Of a stretch of 64,000 bases of DNA, positions 11,138 through 28,290 are shown piece after piece. Below the pieces are notes generated by a model that saw only the letters and a list, made by a program, of their open reading frames with translations, was not told the origin of the DNA and searched no databases. The stretch comes from Candidatus Nomurabacteria bacterium (GTDB taxonomy: Bacteria; Patescibacteriota; Minisyncoccia; Phycocordibacterales; UBA5272). The stretch's first letter is position 1. Every line of letters starts with the position of its first letter. The translations under genes and the position numbers were made by a program. The stretch spans positions 337,536-401,535 of the forward strand of contig JAQBRF010000004.1 of NCBI GenBank assembly GCA_028286645.1, in the 5' to 3' direction.

Positions 11138-11221
11138 CCCAGGTGGCGAAATTGGTAGACGCACTTGCCTTAGGAGCAAGCGCCGCAAGGCATGAAGGTT
11201 CAAGTCCTTTCCTGGGCACCT
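11138..11221 (+). tRNA. tRNA-Leu (anticodon TAG)
   Basis: Acceptor GCCCAGG/CCTGGGC. Anticodon stem-loop ACTTGC-CTTAGGA-GCAAG. Long variable arm (type II). Confidence 0.85.
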
Positions 11222-12825: not shown

Positions 12826-12854
12826 ATACAGATTATAACCTTCTAATGAAGAAA

Positions 12855-13148: not shown

Positions 13149-13560
13149 AACTCAAAGTTAATCATTGCGTTGGCATTACATTGTTCGTTATTAGATTTTT
13201 TGAATATACATTTCATAAGTTATTGCTTGTAAATTAGCTTTTAAGATCTGAATAAATTGGTATGATTTGAGGTCATAATCAAACGAAAAACGGACCTGAA
13301 CTTACTTATCCCGTGAGATAGCTTGTTCAGACCCGTGAATCTGTCTAGCTTTTTATAACTAGCTTTGTTTTCCCTGGACCATATCTTAAGGCTTTTTCAA
13401 GATTAGGGTCGATCAGTAAAACTATTTGATTATCTTAAGTGTAGCTTATATTCATATCTTGTAAATTGCTTATATTTCTTACGAGAGAATAATAAGATAT
13501 ACTTGCATTACAACTAAATATATTAGTGGCCTAACCCCTAAGCAATTAGAGTATGGTCCA

Positions 13561-13700
13561 AATCGCGACAAACATAAAAAACCTATCATTAGGGCGTTTG
13601 TCGCGGTATACCGGGAAACTGGTATACAGGCCTTCGGGCCTTCCTAGTGGTAGGCTTTTTCTGTCTCCACTTAGATTTATAAATTAAACGCGACAAACAA
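13561..13700 (+). promoter_or_regulatory. three copies of 'cgcgacaaac' (two direct, one inverted) up to the start codon
   Basis: aatCGCGACAAACat ... gGCGTTTGTCGCGg ... aaaCGCGACAAACaatttATG. A UUCG-tetraloop hairpin (aggccTTCGggcct) lies in the same region. Confidence 0.4.
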
Positions 13701-13703
13701 TTT

Positions 13704-14135
13704 ATGGAAAAGCACGCTTCTCTTATTAAGAAAGTCTCAATATATGTCATTATTGGCTCTATAGCAGTCATAGCCCTAATTATCTCTATAAGTAGTGGAG
13801 AAGGTAGTACTTCAAGTAAAACAGCGACTACAACCTCAACAATAGCCACACGGCCTAAAATTGGAGAGGAAGGATACATTAAAACAACATTGAAATATCC
13901 TTTCTTAGCTGTAGATAGAGAATCCTACGATCAGATAATGAAATCAGCAGTAGCAAAGGACGATCGAGGAATTGCTGAAGTTATAGCCGGTGGGGGAGGT
14001 TTCTTTGTGGACAATGGTACTAAAGTCCTTGTCCTAGACCAAGAGTTTGGATCTAGGAAAGTGCGGGTGCTTGAAGGTGATCAAATTAATAGGACTGGCT
14101 GGTTAGTAATGGAGTGGATCTCAAAGGAGAAATAG
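13704..14135 (+). CDS. hypothetical membrane-anchored protein with Thr-rich linker
   Basis: N-terminal TM helix, TATTTSTIAT linker, GGGGFF motif. Confidence 0.5.
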   Translation: MEKHASLIKKVSIYVIIGSIAVIALIISISSGEGSTSSKTATTTSTIATRPKIGEEGYIKTTLKYPFLAVDRESYDQIMKSAVAKDDRGIAEVIAGGGGFFVDNGTKVLVLDQEFGSRKVRVLEGDQINRTGWLVMEWISKEK

Positions 14136-14171
14136 TCTTCGTAACTTTGTGTTTACTTGCTCGGTCTAGTT

Positions 14172-14948
14172 TTAGATCTTTACGAGAATAAAACCTATTT
14201 TTTCTCTCACGATTCCGTCATACTTACCTTCTACTAAGTTTTCGAATACTGGCCACGGCTCATAATATGTATAGCTAAAGCCATTTGCACCGTGATTAGT
14301 ATTCTGTTTAGTGGTTTCACTTAGATTTGGATACGCCAAAATAAACGCCATTTCTTCAATTACGTACTTAATAGCAATAGGTACTTTGCTGTTAATGTCT
14401 TCTCCTTCTTGGAGGCGATTCTTTAGGACCTTAGCCGTTGTAGTATTTATATCTTTATGAAACTCTAGATTTTCTTCATATAAGGTCATTAGACATTCAT
14501 ACTCTTTTAAATATGTCTCGTCCTTATAAATGTCTACCCAATCTAAGAAAATAACCTTACTCTTATTTTCTGGTTCTTCTATTTTTATTCTCTCTAAAGC
14601 TGCAAGACAATGATTCCTTAATCGATTCCTATCTAATCTTGCTTCTCTTAATACTTTGTCTTCAGAATATCCTTTAGCACGAAAATTATGCTTAGCTGGA
14701 CCGTCGGTAAAGAAAACTGAGACTCTATTTGAGAAGTTGAGTGAAAAACGCAGCATTCTATATATATTTTCTCTATTGTAATATCCATTGTTTAGGCAAA
14801 TTGCTAAAAGTAAATCTTGTTTTCTATTCAGAAACTCCACACCTCTCTTTCTTATAGGTAACCCTTCGTCATTTAGAATAACCACTGCTTGCCAGTTATG
14901 ATTTTCAACTCTCTTATTTAATCCAGCTATTTCATTTTTTAGGTCCAT
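14172..14948 (-). CDS. tRNA-dependent cyclodipeptide synthase (CDPS) homolog
   Basis: LLLAICLNNGYYNRENIYRML aligns gap-free to the CDPS pocket motif (YvmC [21 protein letters not shown]; AlbC GISAGNSYF). RVSVFFTDGPAKHN aligns to SVSVLLAGHEAAN. AIKYVIEEMAFILAYP aligns to the CDPS Y-x-x-x-E motif (AVEYVIAELPFFIGAP). Comparator sequences are from memory. Confidence 0.65.
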   Translation of the reverse strand: MDLKNEIAGLNKRVENHNWQAVVILNDEGLPIRKRGVEFLNRKQDLLLAICLNNGYYNRENIYRMLRFSLNFSNRVSVFFTDGPAKHNFRAKGYSEDKVLREARLDRNRLRNHCLAALERIKIEEPENKSKVIFLDWVDIYKDETYLKEYECLMTLYEENLEFHKDINTTTAKVLKNRLQEGEDINSKVPIAIKYVIEEMAFILAYPNLSETTKQNTNHGANGFSYTYYEPWPVFENLVEGKYDGIVREKIGFILVKI

Positions 14949-14950
14949 AT

Positions 14951-15388
14951 TTATCTTGCCATTACCACTCTTGGTTCTCCGTCCCCAAAGTAATCTTCTT
15001 TTCTCGATTCAATTTTAAATCCTAGAGATTCATAAAGGCTAATTGCTTTAAAGTTATCTGGGTGTGTTACAAGATCTATCCTTTTTACTTCTCCTATTTC
15101 CTTTAAGATATAATCCATAGCTTGCCTTGCTATTCCTTGTCTCTGAAACTCTGGAAGGATTAATATTCCACTTATATAAGCGTGGTCCGGCGATTTCATT
15201 TCATACATTACGTCACCTGCTATCTTACTGTCTTTCTCAATAATATAAACCGGTCCGTCATTTATGGCTTTTATCCATTCGGATTCCTCAAGCATTGCAG
15301 AATAAGTTTTAGATCCTACAATACTTTGCTCTATAGAGATAAGAGTAGGAATATCTTCAATTATTGCTTTTTTATATTTAAGTTCCAT
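14951..15388 (-). CDS. GNAT family N-acetyltransferase
   Basis: Motif A YISGILILPEFQRQGIARQAMDYIL and the AISLYESLGFK tail. 145 aa. Ends 3 nt before the CDPS start. Confidence 0.8.
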   Translation of the reverse strand: MELKYKKAIIEDIPTLISIEQSIVGSKTYSAMLEESEWIKAINDGPVYIIEKDSKIAGDVMYEMKSPDHAYISGILILPEFQRQGIARQAMDYILKEIGEVKRIDLVTHPDNFKAISLYESLGFKIESRKEDYFGDGEPRVVMAR

Positions 15389-15390
15389 AT

Positions 15391-15870
15391 CTAAATTATA
15401 CTCTTATATTTTTTCATAAACTTCTGTCTATCTTGGGGAGTATCAAACCAAAAGATTGTATAGTACTTTTTCTTTCCGCTTCTTATTAATGCTTCGTGTC
15501 TATGGGTGCCGTCTCTTACCGAAAGAATAGGCCAAGGGCGCGGGTTAGCAATTAACGCCGGGACTTCCCACCCTTTTTTTATTTCTTTTACCATAGCATT
15601 CACCCTTTTGTTAAACTTCTTTAAAGATTCTGGATATTCCATTCCTTCTTCTGGGCCACAACAACGCACTAACTCTTTTAAAGGAAAGTTAATTGGCCCC
15701 ACCCAGGAGTGATACCCTTCTTCTTTACGAAGTTTCAGTCCTCTTGCCATATTTTTATTGATTCCTGGACCGTGGAGAAAGGCAAAGACCCATTCGTCTA
15801 GCCTCCCTTTCTTTGTATAGGCTTTGAGTTCTTTGATAGAGAAATCTAACTTTTGTTCTGTTTTTGTCAT
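15391..15870 (-). CDS. ParB/sulfiredoxin-fold domain protein
   Basis: C-terminal ILSVRDGTHRHEALIRSG matches the ParB/Srx DGxHRxxA core. Ends 3 nt before the GNAT start. Confidence 0.45.
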   Translation of the reverse strand: MTKTEQKLDFSIKELKAYTKKGRLDEWVFAFLHGPGINKNMARGLKLRKEEGYHSWVGPINFPLKELVRCCGPEEGMEYPESLKKFNKRVNAMVKEIKKGWEVPALIANPRPWPILSVRDGTHRHEALIRSGKKKYYTIFWFDTPQDRQKFMKKYKSII

Positions 15871-15938
15871 TAAAGAAGTATACCAGTTACGTTTTAACCA
15901 CTTAAAAGGTAATAAATTAAGGGTGTATAATTAGTATT

Positions 15939-16187
15939 ATGACCACTATCAGAGAAGAACGTATTTTAAGGAGAAAGTTCTATGTTTTAGATAAAATTGC
16001 TAAACAGTTGGATCAAGTACCTGGAACGAATATTATATATTACACTCAAGATCCTACAGAGTACTTAATGAACGGCCTCCAATATAATGAGTTAATCCCA
16101 GGACCAGCAGACGAAGTTAAGATTCTAGAACTCTTTAATTCAGAGGATATTCTAAAAATTGAAAGTAATTACGACGAATATGAGTAG
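15939..16187 (+). CDS. small protein, putative antitoxin partner of PIN protein
   Basis: 82 aa. Lies immediately upstream of the PIN gene. A TATAAT sits 9 nt before its ATG. Confidence 0.35.
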   Translation: MTTIREERILRRKFYVLDKIAKQLDQVPGTNIIYYTQDPTEYLMNGLQYNELIPGPADEVKILELFNSEDILKIESNYDEYE

Positions 16188-16246
16188 AAGAGTACTAAGA
16201 TTAAAAATAAATAGAAGTAACTTTGAGTTATTATATAGTGAAATTA

Positions 16247-16788
16247 TGAAGAAGTTGTCCTTCATAGATACTAAAATACGGATTTATATTGATACAAATA
16301 TTTTTGGGAGAGCGATAGACGGTAAAATGGACCAGACAAACACAGAGTCAATTGAACGCATTGTTTCTAAGAAGAATATTAGCCTATATACGTCTGAAAA
16401 AACCAGACAAGAAATTAAAAATAATCCAAACAAGGGCGCGCAATCCTATTTACAATTTATTGTTAATTTAGTTACTGTTATACCGGAAGAACATTTCATA
16501 AAAGAAACCTCTGTAAGTATAGGTGAAGCGACACTAGGTTCTGTAACTATTGGAGGTACAACTACACAAGAGGATAAAACGTTTACACAACTTTCAGTTA
16601 TTTTCCAACAGGATGACGCAGAGCATATATTTCAAGCTATAAAAAGTAACGCACAGTATTTTATTACTCTTGATCAGAAAACGATTATCAACAAAAGAGA
16701 CGAATACAATAAACTTGGTTATCAAACAAGGCTGGTCACCCCTTTAGATCTTGAAAAAATACTATTTGCAATAGAGGATAACAGCTAA
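16247..16788 (+). CDS. PIN-domain protein (VapC-like nuclease with insertion)
   Basis: IYIDTNIFGRAID is a canonical PIN N-terminus. Later acidic residues at DDAEHIFQAI and FITLDQK. Start chosen at MKKLSF. Confidence 0.55.
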
Positions 16789-16792
16789 ATTA

Positions 16793-17338
16793 CTAGTAGG
16801 TTTTTACGTCGTAATCTCCTGTATCTTTATTATATGTAGTATGGATACTTTTTACTTGCTTATTAGAAACTTTTGCCATTATGTTTAAGAACTTTATTAG
16901 GTTAATTGCTATTAAATATTCATTCTTCTTAAAATCAGAGGTGAAATAAAGATAGGTTAGTTTACTCTTACTGTGGATAGTGTGGAATGTGTAAGAATGA
17001 ATAATAAGATTTAAAAGAAGTGACAGCTTTATGCTTATCTTTTCTGGTTTTTTAAAATCAAAAAGTTCTGTAAAATCGAATACCGGACCACGTCTCTTGG
17101 AGTTTCTTCTATGTCTTATTACAGATACCTTTGTATCTATTACTTTATCGGGTATTTTACGTGCTTCTAAGAGTTTTCTAATAGAGAACGTTATGATAAA
17201 AACCTTTATTTCAACTTTAGAAATGATTTCGTCTAGTTTGTCGTCTTCTAAGCTATTAATGTTAATTTTTTGTAACTTCTTTATGTAAGAAATGTCTCTT
17301 TTTATAATTTGCCTCCAATAGTAAGATTCAAAAGCCAT
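16793..17338 (-). CDS. hypothetical protein, very AT-rich
   Basis: 181-aa ORF, Lys/Ile-rich. Confidence 0.4.
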   Translation of the reverse strand: MAFESYYWRQIIKRDISYIKKLQKININSLEDDKLDEIISKVEIKVFIITFSIRKLLEARKIPDKVIDTKVSVIRHRRNSKRRGPVFDFTELFDFKKPEKISIKLSLLLNLIIHSYTFHTIHSKSKLTYLYFTSDFKKNEYLIAINLIKFLNIMAKVSNKQVKSIHTTYNKDTGDYDVKTY

Positions 17339-17965
17339 TTCGTGTCGTATTATATATAACTATAAGTTCAATACATTCACCCCTATTAAATAGTAATTAT
17401 TTCTTCCTGCCCAAAGTAACAATATCGCCATTATTTGCAATGACTTGTTGCTGTGGCTTATTATGTGGTACTTTAGGTAAACCTTGTACGACGTCGGTAA
17501 AATTATCTTTTTTCATATATACTAGAAGTATATCAAAAACGTATAGCCAAACCAGCCTTTTTCCTATCTACGCTTATAAAATCAGACATTATGCTATTCC
17601 AATCTCTAAACTTCTCAACGTTATTTGACACTAAATCAAAAAGTTCAAGTGCTGTATGATAGCGGGCACAGCAAAAAAAACCATAAGGTCTTTTGTTTTG
17701 CTATGCCTAGGAAGTAAGTGGCCTACGCCACTTAAGGAAGGACTTAAAAGTCCGGAGTATTTTTTTGGAAACTCCTAAAAATGACGAGGAGCAATCGGCA
17801 AACTTTTCTAAGCGACGGCGAGAAAAGATTTGTCGGAAAGATTCCTTTCCTAGATACACCAACATTTCTTCCAATAATATGCTAAGCAAATGATTTAGCT
17901 TAACATAAGAACAGCAAGAATTGGACTATAATTTTTTATGAGAAAATATAACTTTAAATCACTCC

Positions 17966-17994
17966 TTGACTTTCTATATAAGTTATGTTACAAT
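17966..17994 (+). promoter_or_regulatory. near-consensus sigma70 promoter
   Basis: TTGACT, 17-nt spacer, TACAAT. Then AAAGGAG RBS and the ATG at 18030. Confidence 0.65.
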
Positions 17995-18029
17995 GTAGAT
18001 AACCTAGTACTTACACGAAAGGAGCACTT

Positions 18030-18299
18030 ATGGACTCAGACTTAATTGAAAAGACACGACGGGAAACGGCCAGCCAAGTTCTGGCAATTACAACCGTGGT
18101 GTTACAAGCAATGTCAGCCATGACCAATCTCGGAAGCATTACTCCCTACTGGATGATGACAATAGGGTTTGCAACCGCCACAGCAGTTATGTGGATTAGG
18201 CGCAGCGCGAAAGGAGATGGAGGTTATTCTCTCCCCGGCGCAGTGATATGGCCCATCACCACACTTCTCATATTCCTGCATGGCATAGGCAGTCTTTAG
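18030..18299 (+). CDS. small membrane protein (2 TM)
   Basis: 89 aa, two hydrophobic helices. Strong promoter and RBS. Confidence 0.55.
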   Translation: MDSDLIEKTRRETASQVLAITTVVLQAMSAMTNLGSITPYWMMTIGFATATAVMWIRRSAKGDGGYSLPGAVIWPITTLLIFLHGIGSL

Positions 18300-18366
18300 C
18301 AGATGCAAGTAAGTGACCCCAGAGACTTTGGCAACTTTGGGGCCATTTTTGTATTATCATAAGTAA

Positions 18367-19053
18367 ATGAAGCAAACAAAACCACAAATTCTCTTTGAAA
18401 ATAACCAGTTAGTCGTATTAGACAAGCCCTCTGGCATGGTAATCCATCCTTTTGATTTTTCTAATGAACCAACTGTTTTAGATTTTTTGCAGGAAAATTA
18501 TCTGGAGGTTTTTAACATTGAAAATAAGTTTACACTGCAAGATAAAAGAGAAATAAATCTGGGCGGCATCGTTCACAAGTTAGATAGAGACACATCTGGC
18601 ATATTAGTGGTGGCAAGGACCCAACATGCCTTTGATGAATTAAAAAAACAATTTAGAAACCATGAAATAAACAAGGAATATATCGCTCTAGTTAATGGGA
18701 TTTTGAAAGATGACCAGATTCTGATCGACGCCCCTCTTGGAAGGTCAAAGAAAGATTTCAAACAATCAACTCAACCAGAAAATTTAAGAGGAGAAATGCG
18801 AGAAGCGATCACCGTACTTGAAGTTATAAAAAGAAATGAGAATACTACTTTAGTAAAGCTTATCCCCCAAACCGGAAGAACTCATCAATTGCGCGCACAC
18901 ATGGCGTCAATCGGACACCCCATTGTAGGAGATAAGTCATACGGAAGTAAGATAGAGTCGGAAAGAATTATGCTTCATGCAGAAAAGATTTCGTTTGAAT
19001 TAAATAATCAAAAAAATAACTTCGAATCCCAACTGCCTCAGGACTTTAAATAA
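18367..19053 (+). CDS. RluA-family pseudouridine synthase
   Basis: HKLDRDTSGILVVARTQHAFDELKKQF contains the catalytic Asp motif of RluA/RsuA. Confidence 0.8.
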   Translation: MKQTKPQILFENNQLVVLDKPSGMVIHPFDFSNEPTVLDFLQENYLEVFNIENKFTLQDKREINLGGIVHKLDRDTSGILVVARTQHAFDELKKQFRNHEINKEYIALVNGILKDDQILIDAPLGRSKKDFKQSTQPENLRGEMREAITVLEVIKRNENTTLVKLIPQTGRTHQLRAHMASIGHPIVGDKSYGSKIESERIMLHAEKISFELNNQKNNFESQLPQDFK

Positions 19054-19083
19054 AAACGCGGAGGCCGAAGCCTCTCGCGTATT

Positions 19084-19500
19084 TCACACTTTCCTCGCGT
19101 CTTTCTCGATGGGGAACATTTCGAGAATTTTGGAGCGAAGAAAAAAGTACTGAAAAAAGTTCTGAAACCCCATCTCTCGGTAGGGTCTCTCTTCGGAGGG
19201 CGAATAGTTGCCTCCCCAGGCAACCAGCGTTTTATCGCGCATTCGGATATTTATACACTCCGCTTTTGAGACTCCTTGTCCGGCGCTGTTATGAAGAATC
19301 ACTAAATCGAGCTCGTGGTCTTCGGCTGTTATCGTTCTTACCGCCTGCGCAACTTCGGGAGTGTATCGTGCCAAATGGTCTACAACTCCCAAGTACTCCT
19401 CCGCCGTCACATCGAGAAAAATCCCTTTTTCCCGCATCGCTTCCACGAGAGGGGGAAGGTTATTACGACTACCAAGTAAAAGCGTTTTAACTCTGCGCAT
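19084..19500 (-). CDS. hypothetical protein, possible Rossmann-like (DprA/LOG-like) fold
   Basis: LLLGSRNNLPPLV and DLVILHNSAGQG loosely resemble SLOG-superfamily motifs. Moderately GC-rich. Confidence 0.35.
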   Translation of the reverse strand: MRRVKTLLLGSRNNLPPLVEAMREKGIFLDVTAEEYLGVVDHLARYTPEVAQAVRTITAEDHELDLVILHNSAGQGVSKAECINIRMRDKTLVAWGGNYSPSEERPYREMGFQNFFQYFFLRSKILEMFPIEKDARKV

Positions 19501-19570
19501 GTAATTTCCTCAATTTTTGAGCTTTCGCCCATTCACTTAAAACACTAAAGGAATTGACTCTTATAGTCAA

Positions 19571-20167
19571 CTACTTCTCTTTTCTTCTGCCGATTAAAAA
19601 ATAAAACACGGTACCGATTAATGCCCCTATTGTATCCATAAGCATATCCTTCTGAGCGTCCCAAATATCTCCTTGAGACCCTAGGACTGCAATTCCTGCG
19701 CCAGGATCCGAACTAACTGCATATTGCCATTCAAATATTTCATAAAATGCAGCCACCGCCGGAATAATCATAAAGCCTGCTAAATATGCGAACCATTTTT
19801 TATTTACCCATCTGTACTTAATGGCAGATTCAATAATAGGATACGCATAAAACCCCACCGTTGCATGAGCTACCCTGTCATACATATTTCTTTCGAAACC
19901 GAAAAAATTATCAAACCAATCAAATGGAACAGCGGCAAAAGTATAATGCCCCCCAATGGTGTGCATAAATATAAGGATACTCATTAATAAATATGCAATA
20001 TTTGAAAATCTTATTTTTGCAATATATAAACCTATGATAACCGCAACAATTAGAAGAACTGTTAAATTCTCCACCCACCAAGTATGCCTATCTATCGGAT
20101 GAATCCCCAAGGCGACAAATTCTACTGCATAAATTAGCAAAAGAAGATGCGGGAAATATTTTTTCAT
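19571..20167 (-). CDS. polytopic membrane protein, paralog A
   Basis: About 45-50% identical to ORF 21442-22071, for example YFPHLLLLIY, FDWFDNFFGF and KKWFA. Confidence 0.6.
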   Translation of the reverse strand: MKKYFPHLLLLIYAVEFVALGIHPIDRHTWWVENLTVLLIVAVIIGLYIAKIRFSNIAYLLMSILIFMHTIGGHYTFAAVPFDWFDNFFGFERNMYDRVAHATVGFYAYPIIESAIKYRWVNKKWFAYLAGFMIIPAVAAFYEIFEWQYAVSSDPGAGIAVLGSQGDIWDAQKDMLMDTIGALIGTVFYFLIGRRKEK

Positions 20168-20218
20168 TGGGATAAGTGTAGCATAAAAGAAAATGCCGGG
20201 ATTTCTCCCGGCGGTAAT

Positions 20219-20692
20219 TCAAGCCGCATCGCCGCATTGGGCTTTGGCAGCTTCCACTGTTCGCTGAAATTCTTCGCGACTCATGTCATCGCCAACAAGC
20301 CCTGGAGCCCACTCGAACGGCTTAGGGTCAGCCGCTAGGACCGCGTTGAATTCTTCCCTGGTCAGTATCTGGTTGGGAATACTTTCTGACCGTTCGAGTT
20401 CGTTTACCGCTGGATACGCGATGCTGAGCTCGTGGTTCAGAAAAAAATGCATCGAGCTCACCCGTGCCTTTCTCAGCGTCATGAGTTTCCATACATCGGT
20501 GATAAGCTCGAGATCCGGAGTAAGCACTACGTTTCTCGTCCCTTTGAATAAGGCGGGGAAAGTCCCCATGAGCCCATGCTCGAGCTCCAGGAAGTAGACC
20601 ACCGTAGGCACGAACCCTGCCACTTTGCCGTCCTGCAATTCTTTCAGTGTTGCTGGAACTTTACTTCTGAGATCATCGTTTCGTATGCCCAT
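20219..20692 (-). CDS. GC-rich hypothetical protein
   Basis: GGAGGAAAA RBS before the ATG (MGIRNDDL). The ORF-track start at 20767 lies upstream of the RBS. Confidence 0.5.
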   Translation of the reverse strand: MGIRNDDLRSKVPATLKELQDGKVAGFVPTVVYFLELEHGLMGTFPALFKGTRNVVLTPDLELITDVWKLMTLRKARVSSMHFFLNHELSIAYPAVNELERSESIPNQILTREEFNAVLAADPKPFEWAPGLVGDDMSREEFQRTVEAAKAQCGDAA

Positions 20693-20848
20693 TTTTCCTC
20701 CGCACGTAACGTCTCGGGAGATATCCTGAGACCGTTTGATGCGGACGAATCTGCTCCATCTAACCATTTTAAGTATTTTTAGTCAATCTATTGATATGGG
20801 TGATACTCCGACAAATCTTTTCACTCAATTAAAAATAGATTTTTAATT

Positions 20849-21237
20849 TGTGCCCAGGGTAACATGAGAATTAGAGACTCGGCTACAAGTTCCTCCTCGC
20901 CGCCTCTCGTCGGACTCGCAGCCCGCGGCTCGCGATTTCTAGTGCTTTAGAAATAACGCTCCGCCCTTCGAGTCCCGACGCATAACACGCAGGTGTTATG
21001 CTCCCTGGGCACCAATTAAAAATCCGCTAAGGCGGTATTTTTAATTGGTGCCCAAGGCGAGACTCGGTCACAAAACTTCTCGTCGTAAACTCCTCGATAA
21101 AGTTTCGCAAAGTCGACTTATAATTAGTCGACACCTGTAGACGGCCCATTCGAGTCTCCGCAAGCCAAGCAGTTGGCTTGCTTACTACTGACACTGTGAA
21201 GTAAAAAACAGGAATTCTTTTCCTGTTTTTTACTTCA
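20849..21237 (-). mobile_element. array of miniature elements (family E + family F) with reiterated tRNA-Leu(TAA) 3'-end fragments
   Basis: tRNA 3'-like fragments 'ccgagtct...cctgggcac' at 20849-20881 and 21047-21066. Family E body 20882-20998 (gggcggagcgttat core). Long palindrome 21008-21050. Family F body 21067-21194. Hairpin 21195-21237. Confidence 0.6.
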
Positions 21238-21238
21238 T

Positions 21239-21320
21239 GTGCCCAGGGCGAGACTCGAACTCGCACGCGCTACGCGCTGAGGATTTTAAGTCCTCTATGT
21301 CTACCATTCCATCACCCGGG
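21239..21320 (-). tRNA. tRNA-Leu (anticodon TAA)
   Basis: Revcomp GCCCGGGTGATGGAATGGTAGACATAGAGGACTTAAAATCCTC... with a long variable arm. Anticodon loop CUUAAAA. Confidence 0.85.
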
Positions 21321-21325
21321 CAGGT

Positions 21326-21480
21326 TAATGTAAAACTATTCTAGCACATTCACATTAGTATGTTCAGTACGTCTTCACTTGCGTTCAGTTGCACATTCGC
21401 GCTGCTGCGCTCAGTATTTACTCTATCGCGTCCTTCGCTTGTTAGCTACGGACATCTTCGCAGCCAAGCTGCTCCAACAT
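21326..21480. repeat. right copy of long-range inverted repeat (inverted relative to 7021-7242)
   Basis: The revcomp contains agcagcttggctgcgaagat...agctaac...tactgagc...gcgaatgtg...tactgaacatactaatgtgaatgtgc. Confidence 0.7.
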
Positions 21481-22071
21481 ATTTTTCCTATAAACTGACA
21501 AATAAATAATAACACCTAAAATTCCTCCTAGGAAATCCATTAACATATCTTTTGGCGTATCCCAGAAGTCCCCTTGTGAACCCATAAACCCAGCACTAGC
21601 TACTGGGTCAACATTTATTGCGTTAATCCATTCATATATTTCATAAAATGCAGCGATGGCTGTTATAAACATGACGGCAGTAAAACAAGCAAACCACTTT
21701 TTATTTACCGCCTTAAATCTAATTAATACTTCTGTCATTGGATATGCAAGCAGTCCGATTAAAAAGTGTCCCACTCGATCATAGTTATTTCTATGGAAAC
21801 CAAATAAATTATTAAACCAATTAAAGGGCACATTTTCAAACATATAGTGTGCTCCCACTTGGTGCATGTAAAAAAGCCCGAAAATTATTAAATACGAAAT
21901 GTTTGAAAGACGAACATTTTTGATATAAAAAATAATAACAACAAGCACTAGAGGCAGCACGACTGAATTTTCTATAAACCAGACCTCTCTATTTGTAGGA
22001 TTAATCGCAAGCAAAATAAACTCGATTATATATATTAAAAGTAACAGATGGGGAAAGTATTTTTTAAACAT
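21442..22071 (-). CDS. polytopic membrane protein, paralog B
   Basis: Paralog of 19571-20167. Its C-terminal codons lie inside the inverted-repeat copy. Confidence 0.6.
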   Translation of the reverse strand: MFKKYFPHLLLLIYIIEFILLAINPTNREVWFIENSVVLPLVLVVIIFYIKNVRLSNISYLIIFGLFYMHQVGAHYMFENVPFNWFNNLFGFHRNNYDRVGHFLIGLLAYPMTEVLIRFKAVNKKWFACFTAVMFITAIAAFYEIYEWINAINVDPVASAGFMGSQGDFWDTPKDMLMDFLGGILGVIIYLSVYRKNMLEQLGCEDVRS

Positions 22072-22081
22072 ATTATTTATA

Positions 22082-22492
22082 TTAGATAGTAACTACCTCT
22101 ACCTTATGTTTCTCTAATCCAAGATTTGGTTTGTCTATATTTTTGATTATTATTTCAAACAAATATCTTTTGCTTTCGTCTTTACATACTATTTTCGGGC
22201 CAGCAAAATTATCTGCATAAGAACATAATTCATTTTTATCCTTATCAAAGAGGATGTGATGAAATGAATAATCAGACGCACCACCCGAACGTTTTATAAA
22301 GATAAGTGAATCATCAATTATGTAAATTTGTGGATCTGTAAATATATCATCTTTAATCTCTTTAGTAATAGCGGTTAGCGGAAAGCCTTTCTTGTCCCAT
22401 TTAGAATATTTTGAAGAAGCCAATATAACATAGATTAATCCTATCAAGACAATAATTATTAAAGTTGCTAATATAATTAACTTATATTTCAT
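22082..22492 (-). CDS. hypothetical membrane-anchored protein
   Basis: 136 aa with an N-terminal TM helix. Confidence 0.45.
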   Translation of the reverse strand: MKYKLIILATLIIIVLIGLIYVILASSKYSKWDKKGFPLTAITKEIKDDIFTDPQIYIIDDSLIFIKRSGGASDYSFHHILFDKDKNELCSYADNFAGPKIVCKDESKRYLFEIIIKNIDKPNLGLEKHKVEVVTI

Positions 22493-22494
22493 TG

Positions 22495-22567
22495 TGCCCC
22501 CAGAAGGGATCGAACCTTCGACCTGCGGATTAAGAGTCCGATGCTCTACCAGCTGAGCTATAGGGGC
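22495..22567 (-). tRNA. tRNA-Lys (anticodon CTT)
   Basis: Revcomp GCCCCTATAGCTCAGCTGGTAGAGCATCGGACTCTTAATCCGCAGGTCGAAGGTTCGATCCCTTCTGGGGGCA. Anticodon loop CUCUUAA. Confidence 0.85.
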
Positions 22568-22778
22568 ATTGAATGCAAAATACTATACCATGAGTTTGCA
22601 AAATTTTCTAGAGAGTTTATATGAAATATGTTAGAATTAAAAAACTTTTAAAGTAAAAGTATCCGGGCGTGGTGCCCCCATAAGCACTAGCGAAATTAAA
22701 GTATTGCATTGCGATTAAACCGCGGCGCAGATAAGTTAAGAAACGCTGTTAAGCAAATTAATTTAAAATGACCCCTAA

Positions 22779-22852
22779 GGTGCAGTGGCGAAGTGGCCTA
22801 ACGCTGCGGTTTGCAAAACCGCCATTCGCGGGTTCGACTCCCGCCTGCACCT
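22779..22852 (+). tRNA. tRNA-Cys (anticodon GCA)
   Basis: GGTGCAG acceptor pairs with CTGCACC. Anticodon stem-loop GCGGT-TTGCAAA-ACCGC. Discriminator U73, as typical for tRNA-Cys. Confidence 0.85.
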
Positions 22853-23030
22853 CTAAATTACAAAGTAATTTGCAGGAGAAAGCAAACTGCTTTGCTTTCG
22901 GGAGTCGAAAGGCGGAGCGTTATTTATTCTGCTGAATAAATAACGTTCCGCGGCCAGCGAAAAAGTTTTCTGTCGAGAAGACTTTATTTGTCGGAGACAT
23001 TCCCGCCCATACCTCTAAATTCTAATATCC
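22853..23030 (+). mobile_element. family E miniature element + diverged duplicate of tRNA-Cys 3' end
   Basis: Body holds 'tcgaaaggcggagcgttatttattc' and a 16-bp hairpin. 'cattcccgcccatacctctaaatt' at 22999-23030 mirrors tRNA-Cys 3' 'actcccgcctgcacctctaaatt'. Confidence 0.6.
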
Positions 23031-23043
23031 AATTTATTCCCCA

Positions 23044-23072
23044 TTGACAAGATGGGAAATCTAGTATATAAT
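23044..23072 (+). promoter_or_regulatory. consensus sigma70 promoter
   Basis: TTGACA, 17-nt spacer, TATAAT. Confidence 0.65.
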
Positions 23073-23113
23073 AATACGTAAAGCTACATCCACATTCCCC
23101 TACAGAGGGTACG

Positions 23114-23557
23114 ATGAACAAACTGTTCGCAAGTATCGTAATTACATTCTGCCTGGCAGCCTGCCAGAGCATCCCACAAACCACCACCCCGGCACAAAAA
23201 ACCGTGCCGACCATGATCACCACAACCAAAGTCCTGGACCTTCTGGACAAGGACGAGGTGGTGATAGTCGACGTACGGCCGAAGCAAGACCGGAAAACCT
23301 TTCCGTCCGCCTACGGGATTCACTATCTTCAATTCGGTCCGACTCAATGGACCGGAAAGATATCCGGAAGGGATGAGGAAAACTTCCTTCGCGCAATCTA
23401 CCCCATCTACGCGGAGGCGGAGGAGGCGGGGAAAATGATCGTCTTGATGTGCGACGAAGGTGTGCGAGCGCGTGTCGCTGCACAGCTGCTTCACAATCAG
23501 GACATGGACGTGTTCTACGCGTCCGATGCCAACATGATTACGCTCATGTACCGCTAA
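23114..23557 (+). CDS. rhodanese-domain lipoprotein (GC-rich)
   Basis: Signal peptide with lipobox LAAC. Rhodanese active-site loop LMCDEGVRARVAA (CxxGxR). Confidence 0.6.
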   Translation: MNKLFASIVITFCLAACQSIPQTTTPAQKTVPTMITTTKVLDLLDKDEVVIVDVRPKQDRKTFPSAYGIHYLQFGPTQWTGKISGRDEENFLRAIYPIYAEAEEAGKMIVLMCDEGVRARVAAQLLHNQDMDVFYASDANMITLMYR

Positions 23558-23587
23558 AAAGCGATCATGAGAATACAAAGGGCCATG

Positions 23588-23624
23588 CTTAACGCGTGGC
23601 CCGGTTTTTTTTATTTTAAAAAAT
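23588..23624 (+). terminator. rho-independent terminator
   Basis: GGGCCA...TGGCCC followed by GGTTTTTTTTATTTT. Confidence 0.7.
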
Positions 23625-23704
23625 GATAAGTCAATTGCGTTTTATTTTTCAATGTGACAGTATTGTGGGGACCGCTCTATCACAATTCTTTTCGGGAGAC
23701 TACA

Positions 23705-24781
23705 ATGTCTTTTCGCAAACCCACTAAAGCTCAGATGTCCCTACTTAGCGCTACAGTAGGATTCTCTTCGTATCTCATTCCTGCGTACCTAAGTTTCAGT
23801 GGTCCATATAAATGGTGGATGATGTTAGCAGTCTTTTTCAGCTGCTGCGTCTACTATTTCATAGACCTACCATATCCCATAGAAGTGCGCTATTTCAACA
23901 AACCGGTGGGAAATTATTACGATGAGGGTTTTGTTCTGTTCTTTACAATTCCTTTTATTGACTTCCTCTTACGGTTATCCTATCCATATGGAATATGGAT
24001 AGATAGACCAAAAGGAAAAGAGAGGCCAGAAGATATCTACAGAAGGGAGGCTCGAGTTCGAATTAACAAGGACGATTCGAACGTGCGTATCCTCGCACCA
24101 ATCAGAAACTTTACAAAGAGGGATGCGCTCGTAATTAGCATCATAAGGTATTTTTGGGAGCTTTTGTTCACCGGGCCGGAAATATATAAATTCAAAAGGG
24201 TTGGCCGACTCCTACTTTTACTTAGCTTCCTCGGCGGCTTTGGAGCCACTAAGTTCGCCTCAGAACCAGTAGCCGCTCCTCTCCCGCTTCCGAATCCTAC
24301 GAATAATTCTTCTTCCCCGGAGGTGCCTCCGCTACTAGATGTCCAATTTTCCACCACTTCGTCGGAAGTGGTGGAACTAAACGCGCCACTCGCAAGCGAG
24401 CCACCAAACGCCTTGACGGAAACTCAACCGGTAACTCAAGGTATACCCGCAATTCCACAGTCCGCTGCGCCCTCTCTCGGGCCTCAACTCGCGCAAATCG
24501 ATTACTCCCCAAGTGACGAGATACGTGTGTGGAATGAAAATGAATGCGCTCGCATTCCTCCAGACACAGTGTTCGCGTTCAAAATGAACACATGGCCTAA
24601 GCGAGCTGCCAACATGCGTCAAGCATTGAGCTACGCCGACATTCGCAATGGTCAAGGCGGAGAGCCCTCCTACAATACCATCCCCTGGCAAGATGTCGGG
24701 TCATACTGGAACGCCATCGACCCAAATTATCCTCTGCGCTGGGAATCCTACCCTGGTCGCGTGGGGTATGTCTGCTTTTAG
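23705..24781 (+). CDS. hypothetical polytopic membrane protein with Pro/Ser-rich linker and C-terminal domain
   Basis: GGGAGA RBS before MSFRKPTKAQ. Several TM helices. Moderately GC-rich. Confidence 0.5.
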   Translation: MSFRKPTKAQMSLLSATVGFSSYLIPAYLSFSGPYKWWMMLAVFFSCCVYYFIDLPYPIEVRYFNKPVGNYYDEGFVLFFTIPFIDFLLRLSYPYGIWIDRPKGKERPEDIYRREARVRINKDDSNVRILAPIRNFTKRDALVISIIRYFWELLFTGPEIYKFKRVGRLLLLLSFLGGFGATKFASEPVAAPLPLPNPTNNSSSPEVPPLLDVQFSTTSSEVVELNAPLASEPPNALTETQPVTQGIPAIPQSAAPSLGPQLAQIDYSPSDEIRVWNENECARIPPDTVFAFKMNTWPKRAANMRQALSYADIRNGQGGEPSYNTIPWQDVGSYWNAIDPNYPLRWESYPGRVGYVCF

Positions 24782-24787
24782 AAACAT

Positions 24788-24818
24788 CCACAGGTGCAAT
24801 GCCTGTGGCTTTTTTTTA
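24788..24818 (+). terminator. rho-independent terminator
   Basis: CCACAGGtgcaatgCCTGTGG followed by CTTTTTTTT. Confidence 0.7.
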
Positions 24819-24843
24819 AAATAGTCATATATACTTTATTTTA

Positions 24844-25740
24844 ATGGATCAACATATCACCGTCATTCCTCATGAAAAGTTTTCTGAGCACCCTCTTTTA
24901 TCTCGGCTCTTAGAATTACATGATGTACCAGAAGTAATTTATGTAAAAGGAAATCTTCCTGAAATAACAATAGATGAATATGGACGAGCAACTCCTAGAA
25001 TATTAACTGTAGTTGGATCAAGAAGTTACACAGAATATGGAAGGAGCGCATTAAATAATTTAATTTCATCATTAAGCGGGGAAGATGTGATTATCCTTTC
25101 AGGACTTGCTCTTGGTATAGATGGCCTGGCTCACTCTGCAGCACTTAAAAATAATATTAAAACTATTGGCGTGCCCGGAAGTGGAATTGATTTGAAAGTT
25201 ATACATCCACGGACCAATTTGCAAATCGCAGAAGAAATACTTAATAAAGGAGGCACACTTCTATCAGAATTTGATCCTTTAATGCGACCAGCCAAGTGGA
25301 CATTTATTATGAGAAACAGAATTATGGCCGCATTATCTGATGCAGTCCTATTAATAGAAGCGGGCGAAAAGTCTGGGACTCTTGTAACAGCGCGCATGGC
25401 ACTGGAATTAGGACGAGATATTGGAGCAATTCCTGGAGAGATATTTTCTCCTACATCAATAGGCACAAATGACCTTATAAAAAATGGGGCTTATTTAATA
25501 TCAACACCTGACGACTTATTTTCTTTGCTTCATATGTCGAAAAAGCAAGATAGTAATCACCAAATTAATCTAACCCAAGAAGAGAAAATAATTATGGATA
25601 TATTAAATGAGCCATCAGAAAAAGACGCTTTATTAATTAAAAGCAATATGTCTCCTGATAAATTTTTAATAACATTATCCTCGCTTGAAATTAAAGGAGT
25701 AATTGAAGAAACATTTGGAGAAGTAAGAAGGATAAACTAG
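24844..25740 (+). CDS. dprA: DNA processing protein DprA (Smf)
   Basis: LTVVGSRSYTEYGRSAL and LSGLALGIDGLAHSAAL Rossmann motifs. Conserved dprA-topA synteny. Confidence 0.8.
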   Translation: MDQHITVIPHEKFSEHPLLSRLLELHDVPEVIYVKGNLPEITIDEYGRATPRILTVVGSRSYTEYGRSALNNLISSLSGEDVIILSGLALGIDGLAHSAALKNNIKTIGVPGSGIDLKVIHPRTNLQIAEEILNKGGTLLSEFDPLMRPAKWTFIMRNRIMAALSDAVLLIEAGEKSGTLVTARMALELGRDIGAIPGEIFSPTSIGTNDLIKNGAYLISTPDDLFSLLHMSKKQDSNHQINLTQEEKIIMDILNEPSEKDALLIKSNMSPDKFLITLSSLEIKGVIEETFGEVRRIN

Positions 25741-25831: not shown

Positions 25832-28051
25832 ATGAAACTACTCATAGTAGAAAGTCCATCAAAAGCGAAAACAATCTCTAAATATTTAGACGGCGCATAC
25901 GAAGTGCGTGCGTCTGTTGGACATGTGCGAGATCTTCCCAAGAGCAATAAAAAAGCTCTGGACATTGAAGGCGGCTTCGTTCCACACTACGAAGTCTCTC
26001 CGGGGAAAGAAAAAGTAATAGCCGAAATTAAATCCCTCGCAAAGAGATCAAACGAAGTAATACTCGCAACCGACCCCGATCGCGAAGGAGAAGCTATAGC
26101 GTGGCACATAAGAGAGGCTTGTAAATTAGACGGATCTAAGCGCGTAACATTTAACGAAATTACTCCGGAGGCTATTAAAGAAGCACTTAAACATCCTCGA
26201 GAAATCGATATGAATTTAAAGGAGGCGCAAGAAGCGCGAAGAGTGCTTGATCGATTGGTTGGATATGACCTATCCGGAATTATTTGGAAGAAAGTTAGAT
26301 ACGGACTTTCTGCTGGACGAGTGCAGTCTCCAGCGCTTCGCATTATCATGGAAAGAGAAAGAGAAATCCGCGCGTTTAATCCAGTTACTTATTATGTAAT
26401 AGCCGGTGAATTTATAACGGTCGGAAAAATGAAGGAGAGCAAGACATATACATTAATTTTAGAATGCGAAGAGCAGCCGAAAGTTAAGGGAGAAGCTGAT
26501 CGAATAGTAAAAGAAGGAAAGAACGGAACATGGGAAGTAGTAGGAGTTGAGAGCACGGAAGTATCTCGCTCCCCTCGCGCGCCTTTCACTACTTCGACTC
26601 TTCAGCAGACCGCATCGTCTCGCCTCGGGTTTGCTCCTAAGCGCACGATGATGATCGCACAAAAACTATATGAAAAAGGATTAATCACATACATGCGTAC
26701 TGACAGCACGACTCTTTCTGCTGTTGCGGTTAATGAAATTAAAAGTACGATCGAAAAAACATATGGAGGAGAGTTAGTAGAAATTAGACAATACAAAACT
26801 AAATCAAAAAATGCTCAGGAAGCCCACGAAGCAATAAGACCCACTCATGCAAGCTCGAGATCAGGCGGAAGCACAGACGATGAAAAAAGACTCTATTCAT
26901 TAATCTGGGAAAGAACAGTTGCCAGCCAAATGAAGGATGCGAAACTTAAGAGAAGCAAAGTCACTGCAAACATTCATACCAAAAGCATCCCTGACTTTTC
27001 CGTAACAGGATCAATTGTTGTGTCTCCCGGATGGCTGCTTGCAGATCCTAATGCTCGCGGAGATGATGTGATACTACCCGCGCTTAATAAAGGAGACCCG
27101 CTTAACTTAAAAGCCCTTCAAGCGATTGAAAAAGCAACAGAACCGCCGAACAGATATACCGAAGCTGGGCTTATTAAAGAGCTAGAAAAAAGAGGCATCG
27201 GACGACCTTCAACATACGCGTCTATCATTTCTACTATTGAAGACCGTGGGTATGTTGATAAATTAAACAAAGCCCTTCACCCGACAGATACCGGCGAAGT
27301 GGTTATTTCATTTTTAGAAGAGCATTTTACTAATTATATTTCTGATACGTTCACCGCTGAAATGGAAGACAAGCTTGATGATATAGCAGAAGGCAAAACA
27401 ACATACTTAAAAATATTAACTGATTTTTATAAACCATTCTTAAAAGATGTTAAATCAAAAGAAAAATTAGAGAAGGCTACAAACATGGGAGATGCTCCAG
27501 TTGATATTAAATGCCCTCTTTGTGAAAGTCCTATGGTTATTAAGCTTGCAAAAAATGGAAAGTTTTATTCATGTGCAAGGTTCCCGGATTGTATGGGCGC
27601 GAGAAAGTTAGATGGCTCTGTTATGGAAGGACCGAAGATGCTTGGAAAGGTTTGTCCTAAGTGTGAAAAGGGAGAATTAATGGAACGTGAAGGACGTTAT
27701 GGAAAGTTTATTGCATGTTCTAATTATCCAAAGTGTAAATATATTGAGCAAGACGAAGAATTAAGAAAAGCAAATTCTACTGGAGTATCGTGCAATAAAT
27801 GTAAAGATGGATATATGGAAGAAAGAAAAGGCCGGTTTGGTATATTTTATTCCTGTTCAAATTATCCTGATTGCAAACATATTATAAAAACACGGCCCAC
27901 GGGTAACAGATGTACATATAAAAAAGATGATGGAACAGAATGCGGCGAACTCATGATGGAAGGGACAAAAACGATTCCCGAGCGATGCAGTGATAAGACC
28001 TGCCCCAATCATAACCCTCACAAACTAGAGCAAGATAAAACTAAAAAATAA
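25832..28051 (+). CDS. topA: DNA topoisomerase I with C-terminal C4 zinc ribbons
   Basis: TOPRIM MKLLIVESPSKAK...ATDPDREGE. Topo IA core. Four CxxC...CxxC ribbons. Confidence 0.9.
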   Translation: MKLLIVESPSKAKTISKYLDGAYEVRASVGHVRDLPKSNKKALDIEGGFVPHYEVSPGKEKVIAEIKSLAKRSNEVILATDPDREGEAIAWHIREACKLDGSKRVTFNEITPEAIKEALKHPREIDMNLKEAQEARRVLDRLVGYDLSGIIWKKVRYGLSAGRVQSPALRIIMEREREIRAFNPVTYYVIAGEFITVGKMKESKTYTLILECEEQPKVKGEADRIVKEGKNGTWEVVGVESTEVSRSPRAPFTTSTLQQTASSRLGFAPKRTMMIAQKLYEKGLITYMRTDSTTLSAVAVNEIKSTIEKTYGGELVEIRQYKTKSKNAQEAHEAIRPTHASSRSGGSTDDEKRLYSLIWERTVASQMKDAKLKRSKVTANIHTKSIPDFSVTGSIVVSPGWLLADPNARGDDVILPALNKGDPLNLKALQAIEKATEPPNRYTEAGLIKELEKRGIGRPSTYASIISTIEDRGYVDKLNKALHPTDTGEVVISFLEEHFTNYISDTFTAEMEDKLDDIAEGKTTYLKILTDFYKPFLKDVKSKEKLEKATNMGDAPVDIKCPLCESPMVIKLAKNGKFYSCARFPDCMGARKLDGSVMEGPKMLGKVCPKCEKGELMEREGRYGKFIACSNYPKCKYIEQDEELRKANSTGVSCNKCKDGYMEERKGRFGIFYSCSNYPDCKHIIKTRPTGNRCTYKKDDGTECGELMMEGTKTIPERCSDKTCPNHNPHKLEQDKTKK

Positions 28052-28290
28052 TAGCTCGGGAAAGCGACCAACCTGCTTTGGTTGCGTTCGTTTTTGTCGG
28101 GCGGAGCGTTATGAGGTGAGCACGCCGAATTGCGAGCCGAGGGTGATTAGCAAATCATGCCGTGAGGCCAAAGCGAACTTTTTGAGTGGCTACGAAAAAA
28201 GATTTGTAGTCAAAGACCATACCTGAACGATGTAGCGACAAAATCTGTCCGAATCACAATCCACACAAGTTAGAAATAGTAAAGAAATAA
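28052..28290 (+). mobile_element. family E miniature element + diverged duplicate of topA 3' end
   Basis: Body holds 'gtcgggcggagcgttatgagg'. 28205-28290, ending '...tgtccgaatcacaatccacacaagttagaaatagtaaagaaataa', mirrors the last ~75 nt of topA and its stop codon. Confidence 0.6.

Follow-up and report, generated by a model that had tools for sequence, protein, structure and literature searches.

Integrative elements such as e14 and phage 21, at icd, carry a replacement gene end. A paired guide picks the insertion site of group II introns (through exon- and intron-binding sites, EBS-IBS) and of group I introns (through the internal guide sequence), while IS200/IS605 elements and PATEs have guides of 4-5 nt and a fixed short target motif, and do not duplicate gene ends. 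In Escherichia coli, the 178-bp repeats found behind tyrT contain the last 19 nt of the tRNA. The bridge RNA of IS110 has separate target and donor loops; within a loop, one side pairs with one DNA strand and the other side with the opposite strand (PMC11208160). The ssrA islands of Dehalococcoides (DsiB) insert in the T loop and encode a 540-aa serine recombinase beside attL; they occur in tandem, bordered by 20-bp repeats each of which is closely preceded by a conserved motif, and include integrase-less, 'cis-mobilizable' members (PMC3146451). Here we analyse a stretch of 64,000 nucleotides from a Candidatus Nomurabacteria contig (JAQBRF010000004.1, positions 337,536 to 401,535; hereafter the window, whose own numbering we use), in which a tRNA-Leu(TAA) gene is followed by an array of small structured units without genes that resemble several of these systems in part.

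We propose that these units belong to a family of small, non-coding and non-autonomous insertion elements, common in the candidate phyla radiation (CPR, Patescibacteria), which are targeted by base pairing and bring a replacement gene end with them. We put the probability of this reading at slightly better than even, about 0.55.

Results

Two related units in tandem behind tRNA-Leu(TAA)

Downstream of tRNA-Leu(TAA), on its own (minus) strand, two tandem units fill ~390 bp, unit F next to the tRNA and unit E distal to it (Table 1). In each, a structured body is combined with a hairpin and with a repeat of the 19-20 nt that end the tRNA. The repeats are spaced ~190-200 bp apart, and the second one (21048-21066) is identical to 21239-21257 at 18 of 19 positions (95%). 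The initial annotation of the window, made from the sequence alone, had listed these features, and all of them stand where it placed them, with motif counts far above chance: the unit E core occurs three times (0.31 expected), the 22-nt palindrome of unit F twice (0 expected) and GTGCCCARGG four times (0.10 expected). Also borne out is its description of cargo-less miniature units placed serially at a single tRNA 3′ end, a copy of which borders each of them. It had treated E and F as separate families, but six copies from the window align together as one superfamily, of which E and F are subtypes.

To describe this common architecture we read the units on the strand of the target gene and call X the insertion point in the target. 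From 5′ to 3′ a unit consists of A, one or two antisense segments around a hairpin (hp1), a scaffold, and B. A is the target from X to the gene end, that is, from the T loop to the 3′ end in tRNAs and the last 28 codons in topA, and at tRNA sites it is followed by a hairpin with a run of T. There follow ~10 nt antisense to the latter half of the repeat (the acceptor 3′ strand in tRNAs) and hp1, a 9-bp hairpin whose stem covaries among the six window copies while its CTGC loop is constant. On the 3′ side of hp1, a segment of 10-13 nt is antisense to the leading half of the repeat, which in tRNAs comprises the T loop and T stem, and ends one base before the scaffold. We refer to the antisense segments as guides. 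The scaffold has a hairpin hp2 with an invariant GGC-GGA-GCG / CGC-GA-GCC internal loop, missing from F-type units, and a hairpin hp3 that ends in GTGACC or a variant of it. Joined directly to hp3 is B, which repeats the target a second time, starting at about X. The whole unit measures ~150-200 nt and contains no open reading frame (ORF).

Individual parts of the array can be traced to other copies. The hairpin of unit F is homologous to the one at 33375-33415, which precedes the F body at tRNA-Leu(CAA) (83% identity); the homology of the unit E hairpin follows from the alignment of 20873-21064 with 33427-33634. The hp3-like end of the F body abuts repeat copy 2, and an orthologous F unit is present in L143 (loci fetched for comparison are given as L and a number). 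Repeat copy 3 is split by a 14-nt insert into 20850-20859 and 20874-20882. In the minimum free energy fold, the guide of unit F pairs with the downstream tRNA-end copy; in the predicted fold of unit E, the anti-acceptor half of the guide forms the outer 10-bp stem, and the ends of the unit can pair into an acceptor-like stem with a 3′ end identical to that of the tRNA. A long palindrome at 21003-21057, described by the initial annotation as built from tRNA fragments, is real: its arms (21003-21023 and 21037-21057) are 21 nt each, 95% complementary, and extend into a tRNA-end copy and the complement of that copy. What it represents, though, is copy A of unit E pairing with the unit's own anti-acceptor half across the hairpin, 21013-21047 being the hairpin and 21003-21012 and 21048-21057 its extension. 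The hairpin that had been called terminator-like is likewise confirmed as a hairpin, but a simple terminator scan calls none of the hairpins a terminator. Because they are AT-rich, carry the T run inside the stem and are not called by the scan, 'terminator-like' stays an interpretation.

The spacing of the repeats, and a perfect tandem duplication of a unit in L124, could be taken as the outcome of local tandem duplication and unequal crossing-over of the tRNA 3′ region. The bodies speak otherwise: E and F differ from each other, and each resembles its neighbour less than it does copies located at topA, at other tRNAs and in other classes of CPR. That closer relatives are found at different loci and in different organisms already contradicts a local origin, which we find hardly credible, and also sets the array apart from repeats of the tyrT type, which derive from their own locus only.

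Structural selection on the scaffold

A covariance model of the scaffold (R1) recovered the six units of the window, matching unit E with 72 bits (E=7e-14) and the E unit of tRNA-Leu(CAA) at 33435-33519 with 51 bits, and found a seventh at 17751-17837. RNAalifold gave 23 scaffold pairs, and compensatory changes in 17 of these. Among 31 distinct sequences, in an alignment that had been fitted to the model (which must be held against the counts), 94% of scaffold cells were paired, as compared with 65.5% after shuffling and 30-45% with the partners slid; 22 of the 23 pairs were altered on both sides, and the covariation score was 0.685, against at most 0.124 with the partners slid. The scaffold is thus under structural selection. 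Since G-U pairs outnumber A-C mismatches (23 to 6), the sense strand would be the one that folds, in the form either of RNA or of single-stranded DNA. For unit E, folding is far better than that of shuffles on both strands, as hairpin-rich DNA would lead one to expect. One replichore holds elements in both orientations, an observation that speaks against strict dependence on the lagging strand.

No family of Rfam 15 (ribozymes, introns and small RNAs among them) matched the module, even at a permissive E≤1 to 10, and the only matches that passed the threshold were tRNA, tmRNA and LOOT. Hammerhead, HDV-like, group II domain V, box C/D and H/ACA structures were examined by eye and rejected, as their core motifs are lacking.

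The conserved loops CTGC, AGCA and GACG and the invariant internal loop are typical of RNA-protein handles and, like the G-U bias on the sense strand, would suit a route resembling that of short interspersed elements (SINEs): the unit would be transcribed, its guide would direct cleavage at X, and it would be reverse-transcribed in trans, with the target-derived 3′ part serving for priming or annealing. Copies truncated at the 5′ side with an intact 3′ junction (unit 2 of L137, flanked by the 8-nt repeat GAATCCCT, and the second copy of L127) agree with such a route, although truncated copies may also come from deletion. We found no reverse transcriptase among the annotated ORFs of the window or the called genes of the fetched loci, and the T-run hairpins lie upstream of the body, for which no promoter-like site was found. 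Taken together, these observations make a SINE-like route distinctly improbable.

Antisense segments are matched to the element's own target

We compared the 15 nt located 5′ of the scaffold with the element's own target and with those of elements of other target types. The exact complement to the element's own upstream target averages 9.95 nt and reaches at least 9 nt in 81% of cases, whereas against the targets of other-type elements it averages 5.43 nt and reaches that length in 2%. When the targets were shuffled, 12 of the 25 copies gave no match as long as the observed one in 200 trials, and 16 gave one at most. Copies bearing hp1 have a second complementary block of 6-14 nt located 21-25 nt further upstream, beyond hp1; the stretches that the two blocks match adjoin each other on the target, and both blocks are complementary to one (the sense) strand. 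The tRNA-Cys unit may serve as an example, its guide GGGAGTCGAA being complementary to TTCGACTCCC with an 11-nt exact complement. Between the topA elements of the window and L143, two target positions differ and both are compensated in the guide. In most copies, the junction between element and B lies ~2-4 nt inside the guide-paired stretch. The matching of guide to target therefore holds across many targets, and suggests that targeting works by base pairing. Extension of a palindrome by snap-back synthesis was also considered as a source of the antisense segments and rejected: at topA they match a region ~65 nt upstream of the stop codon and not the adjacent sequence.

A replacement gene end at topA

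The repeat always reaches the end of the gene, which makes it ~20 nt long at tRNAs and ~80 nt at topA. At topA, copies A and B are both in frame and encode a near-identical peptide. Between them we counted 54 synonymous and 17 non-synonymous codon changes over five lineages, and 16 to 1 over 20 codons in the window. As the copies differ mostly synonymously, one of them evolved as the working gene end in another lineage, and so one topA copy is of foreign origin. The same synonymous divergence led us to reject target-site duplication by staggered cuts, and with a repeat whose length depends on the target and reaches the gene end, it separates the units from classical miniature inverted-repeat transposable elements (MITEs).

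The imported copy is more likely A than B. From the window to L143, B has diverged much as the remainder of topA has (third-position identity is ~0.52 for B, 0.49 for the rest of the gene and 0.64 for A), it is decayed or truncated in L127 and L129, and the hairpin between A and the body moves along with the body.

Distribution of the family and differences in occupancy

The window contains seven units in 64 kb, and four of its five tRNA genes bear them, tRNA-Lys being the one without. Apart from F and E, five further copies are found at tRNA-Leu(CAA) (two), tRNA-Cys, tRNA-Leu(TAG) and the 3′ end of topA (Table 1). At tRNA-Leu(CAA) the order is E then F, and the repeats and guides match this tRNA; the tRNA-Cys unit has its second tRNA-end copy at 22998-23022. 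The tRNA-Leu(TAG) gene (11137-11220) is located 6.4 kb upstream of the unit that matches it.

A search with the hp2 (E-core) pattern retrieved metagenome-assembled genomes of Saccharibacteria and Paceibacteria and 20 metagenome contigs. A 15-base pattern proved too short on genome contigs, where nearly all of the at least 120 matches listed were due to chance and only L036 and L100 were real. In these searches the module was found directly behind tRNA-Thr(GGT), tRNA-Thr(TGT), tRNAs for Ala, Lys, Gln, Ser and Met, tmRNA, topA and another ORF. The targets in CPR genomes and metagenomes include at least 10 different tRNAs plus tmRNA and protein genes; one conserved body is present at more than 12 different targets, a protein-coding gene among them. 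Most copies have a second target-end copy behind the module, with a repeat of only 3-5 nt in L123 and L136. The E and F families recur well beyond this locus and duplicate their own targets where they do, so that the outcome named by the initial annotation as refuting it, sequences confined to this locus, does not apply. Arrays are common (L124, L130, L137 and L141), and among loci that were fetched without regard to the module (L143-L156), about 3-4 of 16 tRNA genes bear such a unit. A scan of viral contigs for the scaffold gave no match.

L143 is syntenic with the window (TopA is 81% identical) and allows occupancy to be compared site by site. At tRNA-Leu(TAA) the window has F and E and L143 has F only; at tRNA-Cys an E-type unit in the window corresponds to a unit with hp3 only in L143; and the unit at 17643-17862, belonging to tRNA-Leu(TAG), is extra in the window and absent from L143. 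Occupancy thus differs between related genomes, and the 5′-truncated copies of L137 and L127, whose 3′ junctions are intact, belong to the same picture of turnover. Differences in occupancy bear on the possibility that the units are resident genes for structured non-coding RNAs, either antisense regulators or tRNA-like RNAs from the tRNA operon, which are immobile and duplicate only locally. Strong covariation, ends able to form an acceptor-like stem whose 3′ end is identical to that of the tRNA, and the identical tandem duplication in L124 would all be natural for genes of this sort. They do not account for the differing occupancy, for the synonymous divergence of the duplicated topA ends, or for the decay of B and the presence of the same body, with matching antisense, at unrelated targets; we hold it very improbable that the units are resident genes.

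The neighbourhood of the units also varies. Two paralogous DUF2238 genes bracket the tRNA-Leu(TAA) array (19571-20167 and 21442-22071, both on the minus strand), and L143 has only the one beside the tRNA, without a second paralogue. The segment 19084-20826, distal to the array and including ORFs without family matches, may be further imported DNA. Gene order differs between related genomes by inversions whose end points lie at tRNA genes with elements or islands, as seen in the blocks that we compared (window 9380-25740 with L143 4100-15400, and L146 with L154, between which a block with tRNA-Val and an island is inverted).

Some displaced tRNA-end copies carry inserts of 12-14 nt, unrelated in sequence, that split the T-loop part from the acceptor part (20860-20873 and 17651-17662 in the window, 6562-6573 in L143, and the B copies of L122 and L141). 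A different arrangement is seen upstream of tRNA-Leu(TAG), where a direct copy of its first 19 nt (11033-11051) is accompanied by an inverted copy of its D-arm region (11075-11089). This segment (11033-11089), a 5′-end mirror image of the layout of target copy plus antisense segment, is absent in L143.

A serine-recombinase island at tRNA-Leu(TAG)

The ORF at 11200-12825 encodes a large serine recombinase of 541 aa, and its 3′ end overlaps the 3′ end of tRNA-Leu(TAG). It belongs to a CPR-wide family of ~545-aa proteins with more than 1100 homologues. In all the loci fetched for four of these homologues (L143-L156), the gene overlaps the 3′ end of a convergent tRNA, which is Leu-TAG, Val-TAC or Ala-TGC (L143, L146, L148-L156, around position 11600). 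In the window the island extends from 11200 to ~17640, is low in GC, contains genes for a cyclodipeptide synthase and an acetyltransferase, and lies between tRNA-Leu(TAG) and the mini unit at 17643-17862. It ends at a displaced tRNA-end copy (17643-17669: GTTCAAGT, 12 nt and CGGGCAC) shared with L143, and is therefore stacked in the same array as the mini unit.

These observations give substance to the view, also taken by the initial annotation for tRNA-Leu(TAA), that the units are remnants of integrase islands. Islands would have entered the T loop serially, bringing replacement 3′ ends, and fused attachment (att) arms would have been left when the cargo was deleted; further movement would rely on an island integrase acting on protein-recognised att sites. 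A recombinase island whose gene overlaps the tRNA end, here and in the homologues at Leu, Val and Ala tRNAs (L143-L156), the stacking of island and mini unit at one tRNA-Leu(TAG) site, and the precedent of the Dehalococcoides ssrA islands (PMC3146451) all point in this direction, and the conserved GTGACC end beside B could be an att arm. However, the far ends of the islands do not carry the R1 module in the window, L143, L146, L148 or L154, nor the GTGACC motif in the window and L143, where their sequence is unrelated. No recombinase homologue is found near the module in the metagenome loci. With the module missing from the islands and the recombinase from the module loci, we do not take this enzyme to be the partner of the module. 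Further, a protein-recognised att site cannot explain one body at more than 12 unrelated targets, topA included, and remnants would give no role to the target-matched antisense segment and the covarying hairpins. We therefore consider an island origin unlikely. Scars left by integrases aimed at this particular tRNA do not fit a covarying body that recurs at more than 12 targets, a protein-coding gene among them, and antisense segments matched to each unit's own target show that the units are not passive. The initial annotation was, in sum, partly right in its interpretation, but missed a conserved, structured and target-matched family that extends across CPR bacteria.

Several further features of the islands were recorded. 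Every serine-recombinase island that we examined contains LOOT RNA (RF03000), placed 0.7-2.2 kb away from the recombinase gene start (window 13528-13642, plus strand; L143 7986-8105; L146 9157-9288; L148/L149 8413-8540; L154 7821-7932). We rejected this RNA as a guide for the recombinase, because its complementarity to the target tRNA is no better than chance. The RluA gene call in L143 runs 22 codons over the displaced tRNA-Leu(TAG) end copy (window 17592-17660; L143 6558-6624), and the true start is probably the ATG right after this copy. In L149, an inverted pair of tRNA-Ala genes (5431-5506 and 11609-11683) brackets a 6-kb segment with two serine-recombinase genes; in L148 and L150 the left side is instead occupied by a restriction-modification cluster, which makes this locus polymorphic between samples.

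Table 1. Coordinates of the tRNA-Leu(TAA) array and of the other units in the window
Feature	Position	Strand	Sequence, evidence or remark
tRNA-Leu(TAA), target gene	21239-21321	minus	ARAGORN; Rfam tRNA, 56.4 bits
Promoter-like site for tRNA-Leu(TAA)	21366-21338	minus	
Repeat copy 1 (A of unit F)	21239-21259	minus	last ~20 nt of tRNA-Leu(TAA), T loop to 3′ end
Unit F hairpin	21197-21237	minus	inverted repeat; perfect 18-bp stem, T run
Unit F hp1	21160-21181	minus	palindrome of the initial annotation, GCAAGCCAA-CTGC-TTGGCTTGC (on the forward strand GCAAGCCAA-gcag-TTGGCTTGC); 9-bp stem, conserved CTGC loop
Unit F antisense 'guide'	21145-21159	minus	GGAGACTCGAATGGG, complement of tRNA T-loop region TTCGAGTCTC; inverted repeat
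Unit F body	21067-21144	minus	internal hairpin 21112-21132; hp3-like terminal hairpin ending ...TTTTGTGACC; alignment, fold
Repeat copy 2 (B of unit F and A of unit E)	21048-21066	minus	cgagtctcgccTtgggcac
Unit E hairpin	21013-21047	minus	homologous to hairpin preceding E body at tRNA-Leu(CAA)
Unit E guide, 5′ half (anti-acceptor)	21003-21012	minus	GTGCCCAGGG, complement of acceptor 3′ strand; inverted repeats
Unit E hp1	20980-21001	minus	9-bp stem, CTGC loop; alignment and fold
Unit E guide, 3′ half (anti-T)	20966-20979	minus	GTCGGGACTCGAAG, complement of T-loop region; inverted repeat
Unit E core	20953-20966	minus	GGGCGGAGCGTTAT
Unit E scaffold	20881-20965	minus	hp2 with invariant GGCGGAGCG...CGCGAGCC internal loop; hp3 ending ...CTTGTAGCC
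Repeat copy 3 (B of unit E)	20850-20882	minus	cgagtctc, 14-nt insert (20860-20873), ccctgggcac
Degenerate E-type hairpin, distal end of array	20826-20848	minus	AATTAAAAAT-ct-ATTTTTAATT; inverted and direct repeats
tRNA-Leu(CAA) pair	33255-33617	minus	unit E (33407-33617), then unit F (33255-33406)
tRNA-Cys unit, E type	22854-23022	plus	R1, 60.6 bits
topA unit	27964-28290	plus	behind stop codon of topA (ORF 25832-28051)
topA unit, replacement C-terminal coding end	27964-28051	plus	
topA unit, guide halves around hp1	28054-28062 and 28086-28098	plus	
topA unit, scaffold	28100-28211	plus	
topA unit, displaced second in-frame C-terminus copy	28212-28290	plus	
tRNA-Leu(TAG) unit	17643-17862	plus	R1, 34.8 bits, E=2e-5; seventh copy, found by R1
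tRNA-Leu(TAG) unit, displaced tRNA-end copy	17643-17669	plus	
tRNA-Leu(TAG) unit, guide halves around hp1	17700-17712 and 17735-17745	plus	after a hairpin
tRNA-Leu(TAG) unit, scaffold	17751-17837	plus	
tRNA-Leu(TAG) unit, decayed tRNA-end copy	17838-17862	plus	

Discussion

The units share with the ssrA islands insertion in the T loop, 3′-end repeats of ~20 bp, serial arrays, a motif upstream of the repeat and members without integrase, and with the integrative elements that carry a replacement end they share a new gene end with synonymous differences. They differ from the islands in being 150-200-nt units without genes, in having more than 12 targets for one family, and in combining target-matched antisense with a covarying scaffold; the local recombinase island shares no arms with them. 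Judged as integrative or cis-mobilizable elements (CIMEs), they do show direct repeats of the target (copies at 21239, 21048 and 20850, and at other targets too), but no att arms in common with an integrase-encoding relative, and instead of one protein-recognised target per family they occupy tRNAs, tmRNA, topA and another ORF.

Among the systems that rely on pairing, the IS110 bridge RNA is similar in having a structured non-coding part, short segments flanking a hairpin that covary with the site, and a wide range of targets. In our units, unlike in IS110, both guide halves are complementary to a single strand and contiguous on the target. There is also no ORF in them, and their repeats, from 19 to ~80 nt, run to the gene end, whereas IS110 has a core dinucleotide repeat and its own DEDD/Tnp recombinase. 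IS200/IS605 elements and PATEs are likewise hairpin-rich miniatures with a guide beside a hairpin and a strand-specific fold; in contrast to the DNA-DNA pairing of 4-5 nt in IS200/IS605, the complementarity here comprises 10-20 nt and is retargeted to many genes, and as opposed to PATEs, the targets have no common short motif and the units are flanked by long gene-end repeats. With group I and group II introns the units would share a base-paired guide within a structured mobile element that chooses the site, but they are far smaller, have no Rfam intron match, pair mostly 3′ of the junction and leave the gene uninterrupted by supplying a duplicate end.

We favour base-pairing-targeted insertion of non-autonomous elements, which could proceed as follows. 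The element would insert at X, a few nt inside the stretch that pairs with its antisense segment, the pairing partner being the sense strand of the target; the position of the junction inside this stretch is the reason for regarding the choice of target as guide-like. The scaffold may act as a handle for a trans-acting enzyme. The imported 3′ end would keep the gene intact, and insertion into essential genes could thus be tolerated. Repeated insertion at the regenerated site would build arrays in which the newest unit is the one beside the gene.

Several observations weigh against this proposal. In the array itself, the guide of unit E has two mismatches to tRNA-Leu(TAA), and unit F is without a clear anti-acceptor half. 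At topA, the guide of the window matches A perfectly and B at only 13 of 18 positions, and selection may act on pairing within the element instead of on target search. We found no pair of empty and filled sites from near-identical strains and saw no excised form (searches for strain variants by way of exact proteins from the tRNA-Leu(TAA) and tRNA-Leu(CAA) loci returned the same sample only), and mobility is for this reason deduced from distribution and not observed. No recombinase was found near the module in 22 loci, and no enzyme is linked to it. No promoter-like site was found for the unit body, and at tRNA sites the T-run hairpin stands between gene and body, which weakens an RNA-only model or simple read-through. 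The proposal also does not explain the inserts of 13-14 nt inside some B copies.

A bolder version of the proposal, which we advance tentatively and find possible rather than probable, is that the family represents a new class of programmable mobile element, in which a bipartite guide and a small scaffold direct cutting and joining near the 3′ ends of essential genes, by way of an effector or of a reaction catalysed by RNA or single-stranded DNA, and a recoded gene end makes the insertion harmless. Such a system would stand apart from CRISPR-associated transposons, the IS110 bridge RNA, IS200/IS605 and group II introns.

If pairing does choose the site, the family would be a very compact insertion system that has been retargeted often in nature, to tRNAs, tmRNA and topA. 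It would repair its own damage by means of a recoded gene end, and might be a lead for programmable DNA insertion. On a conservative reading, a family of structured elements is still defined, which Rfam does not contain and of which we found no description in the literature searched; it is apparently undescribed. For the CPR bacteria, it would account for part of the non-coding DNA in their tiny genomes, would explain tRNA-gene fragments that confuse annotation, and may supply the repeats behind inversions that end at tRNA genes.

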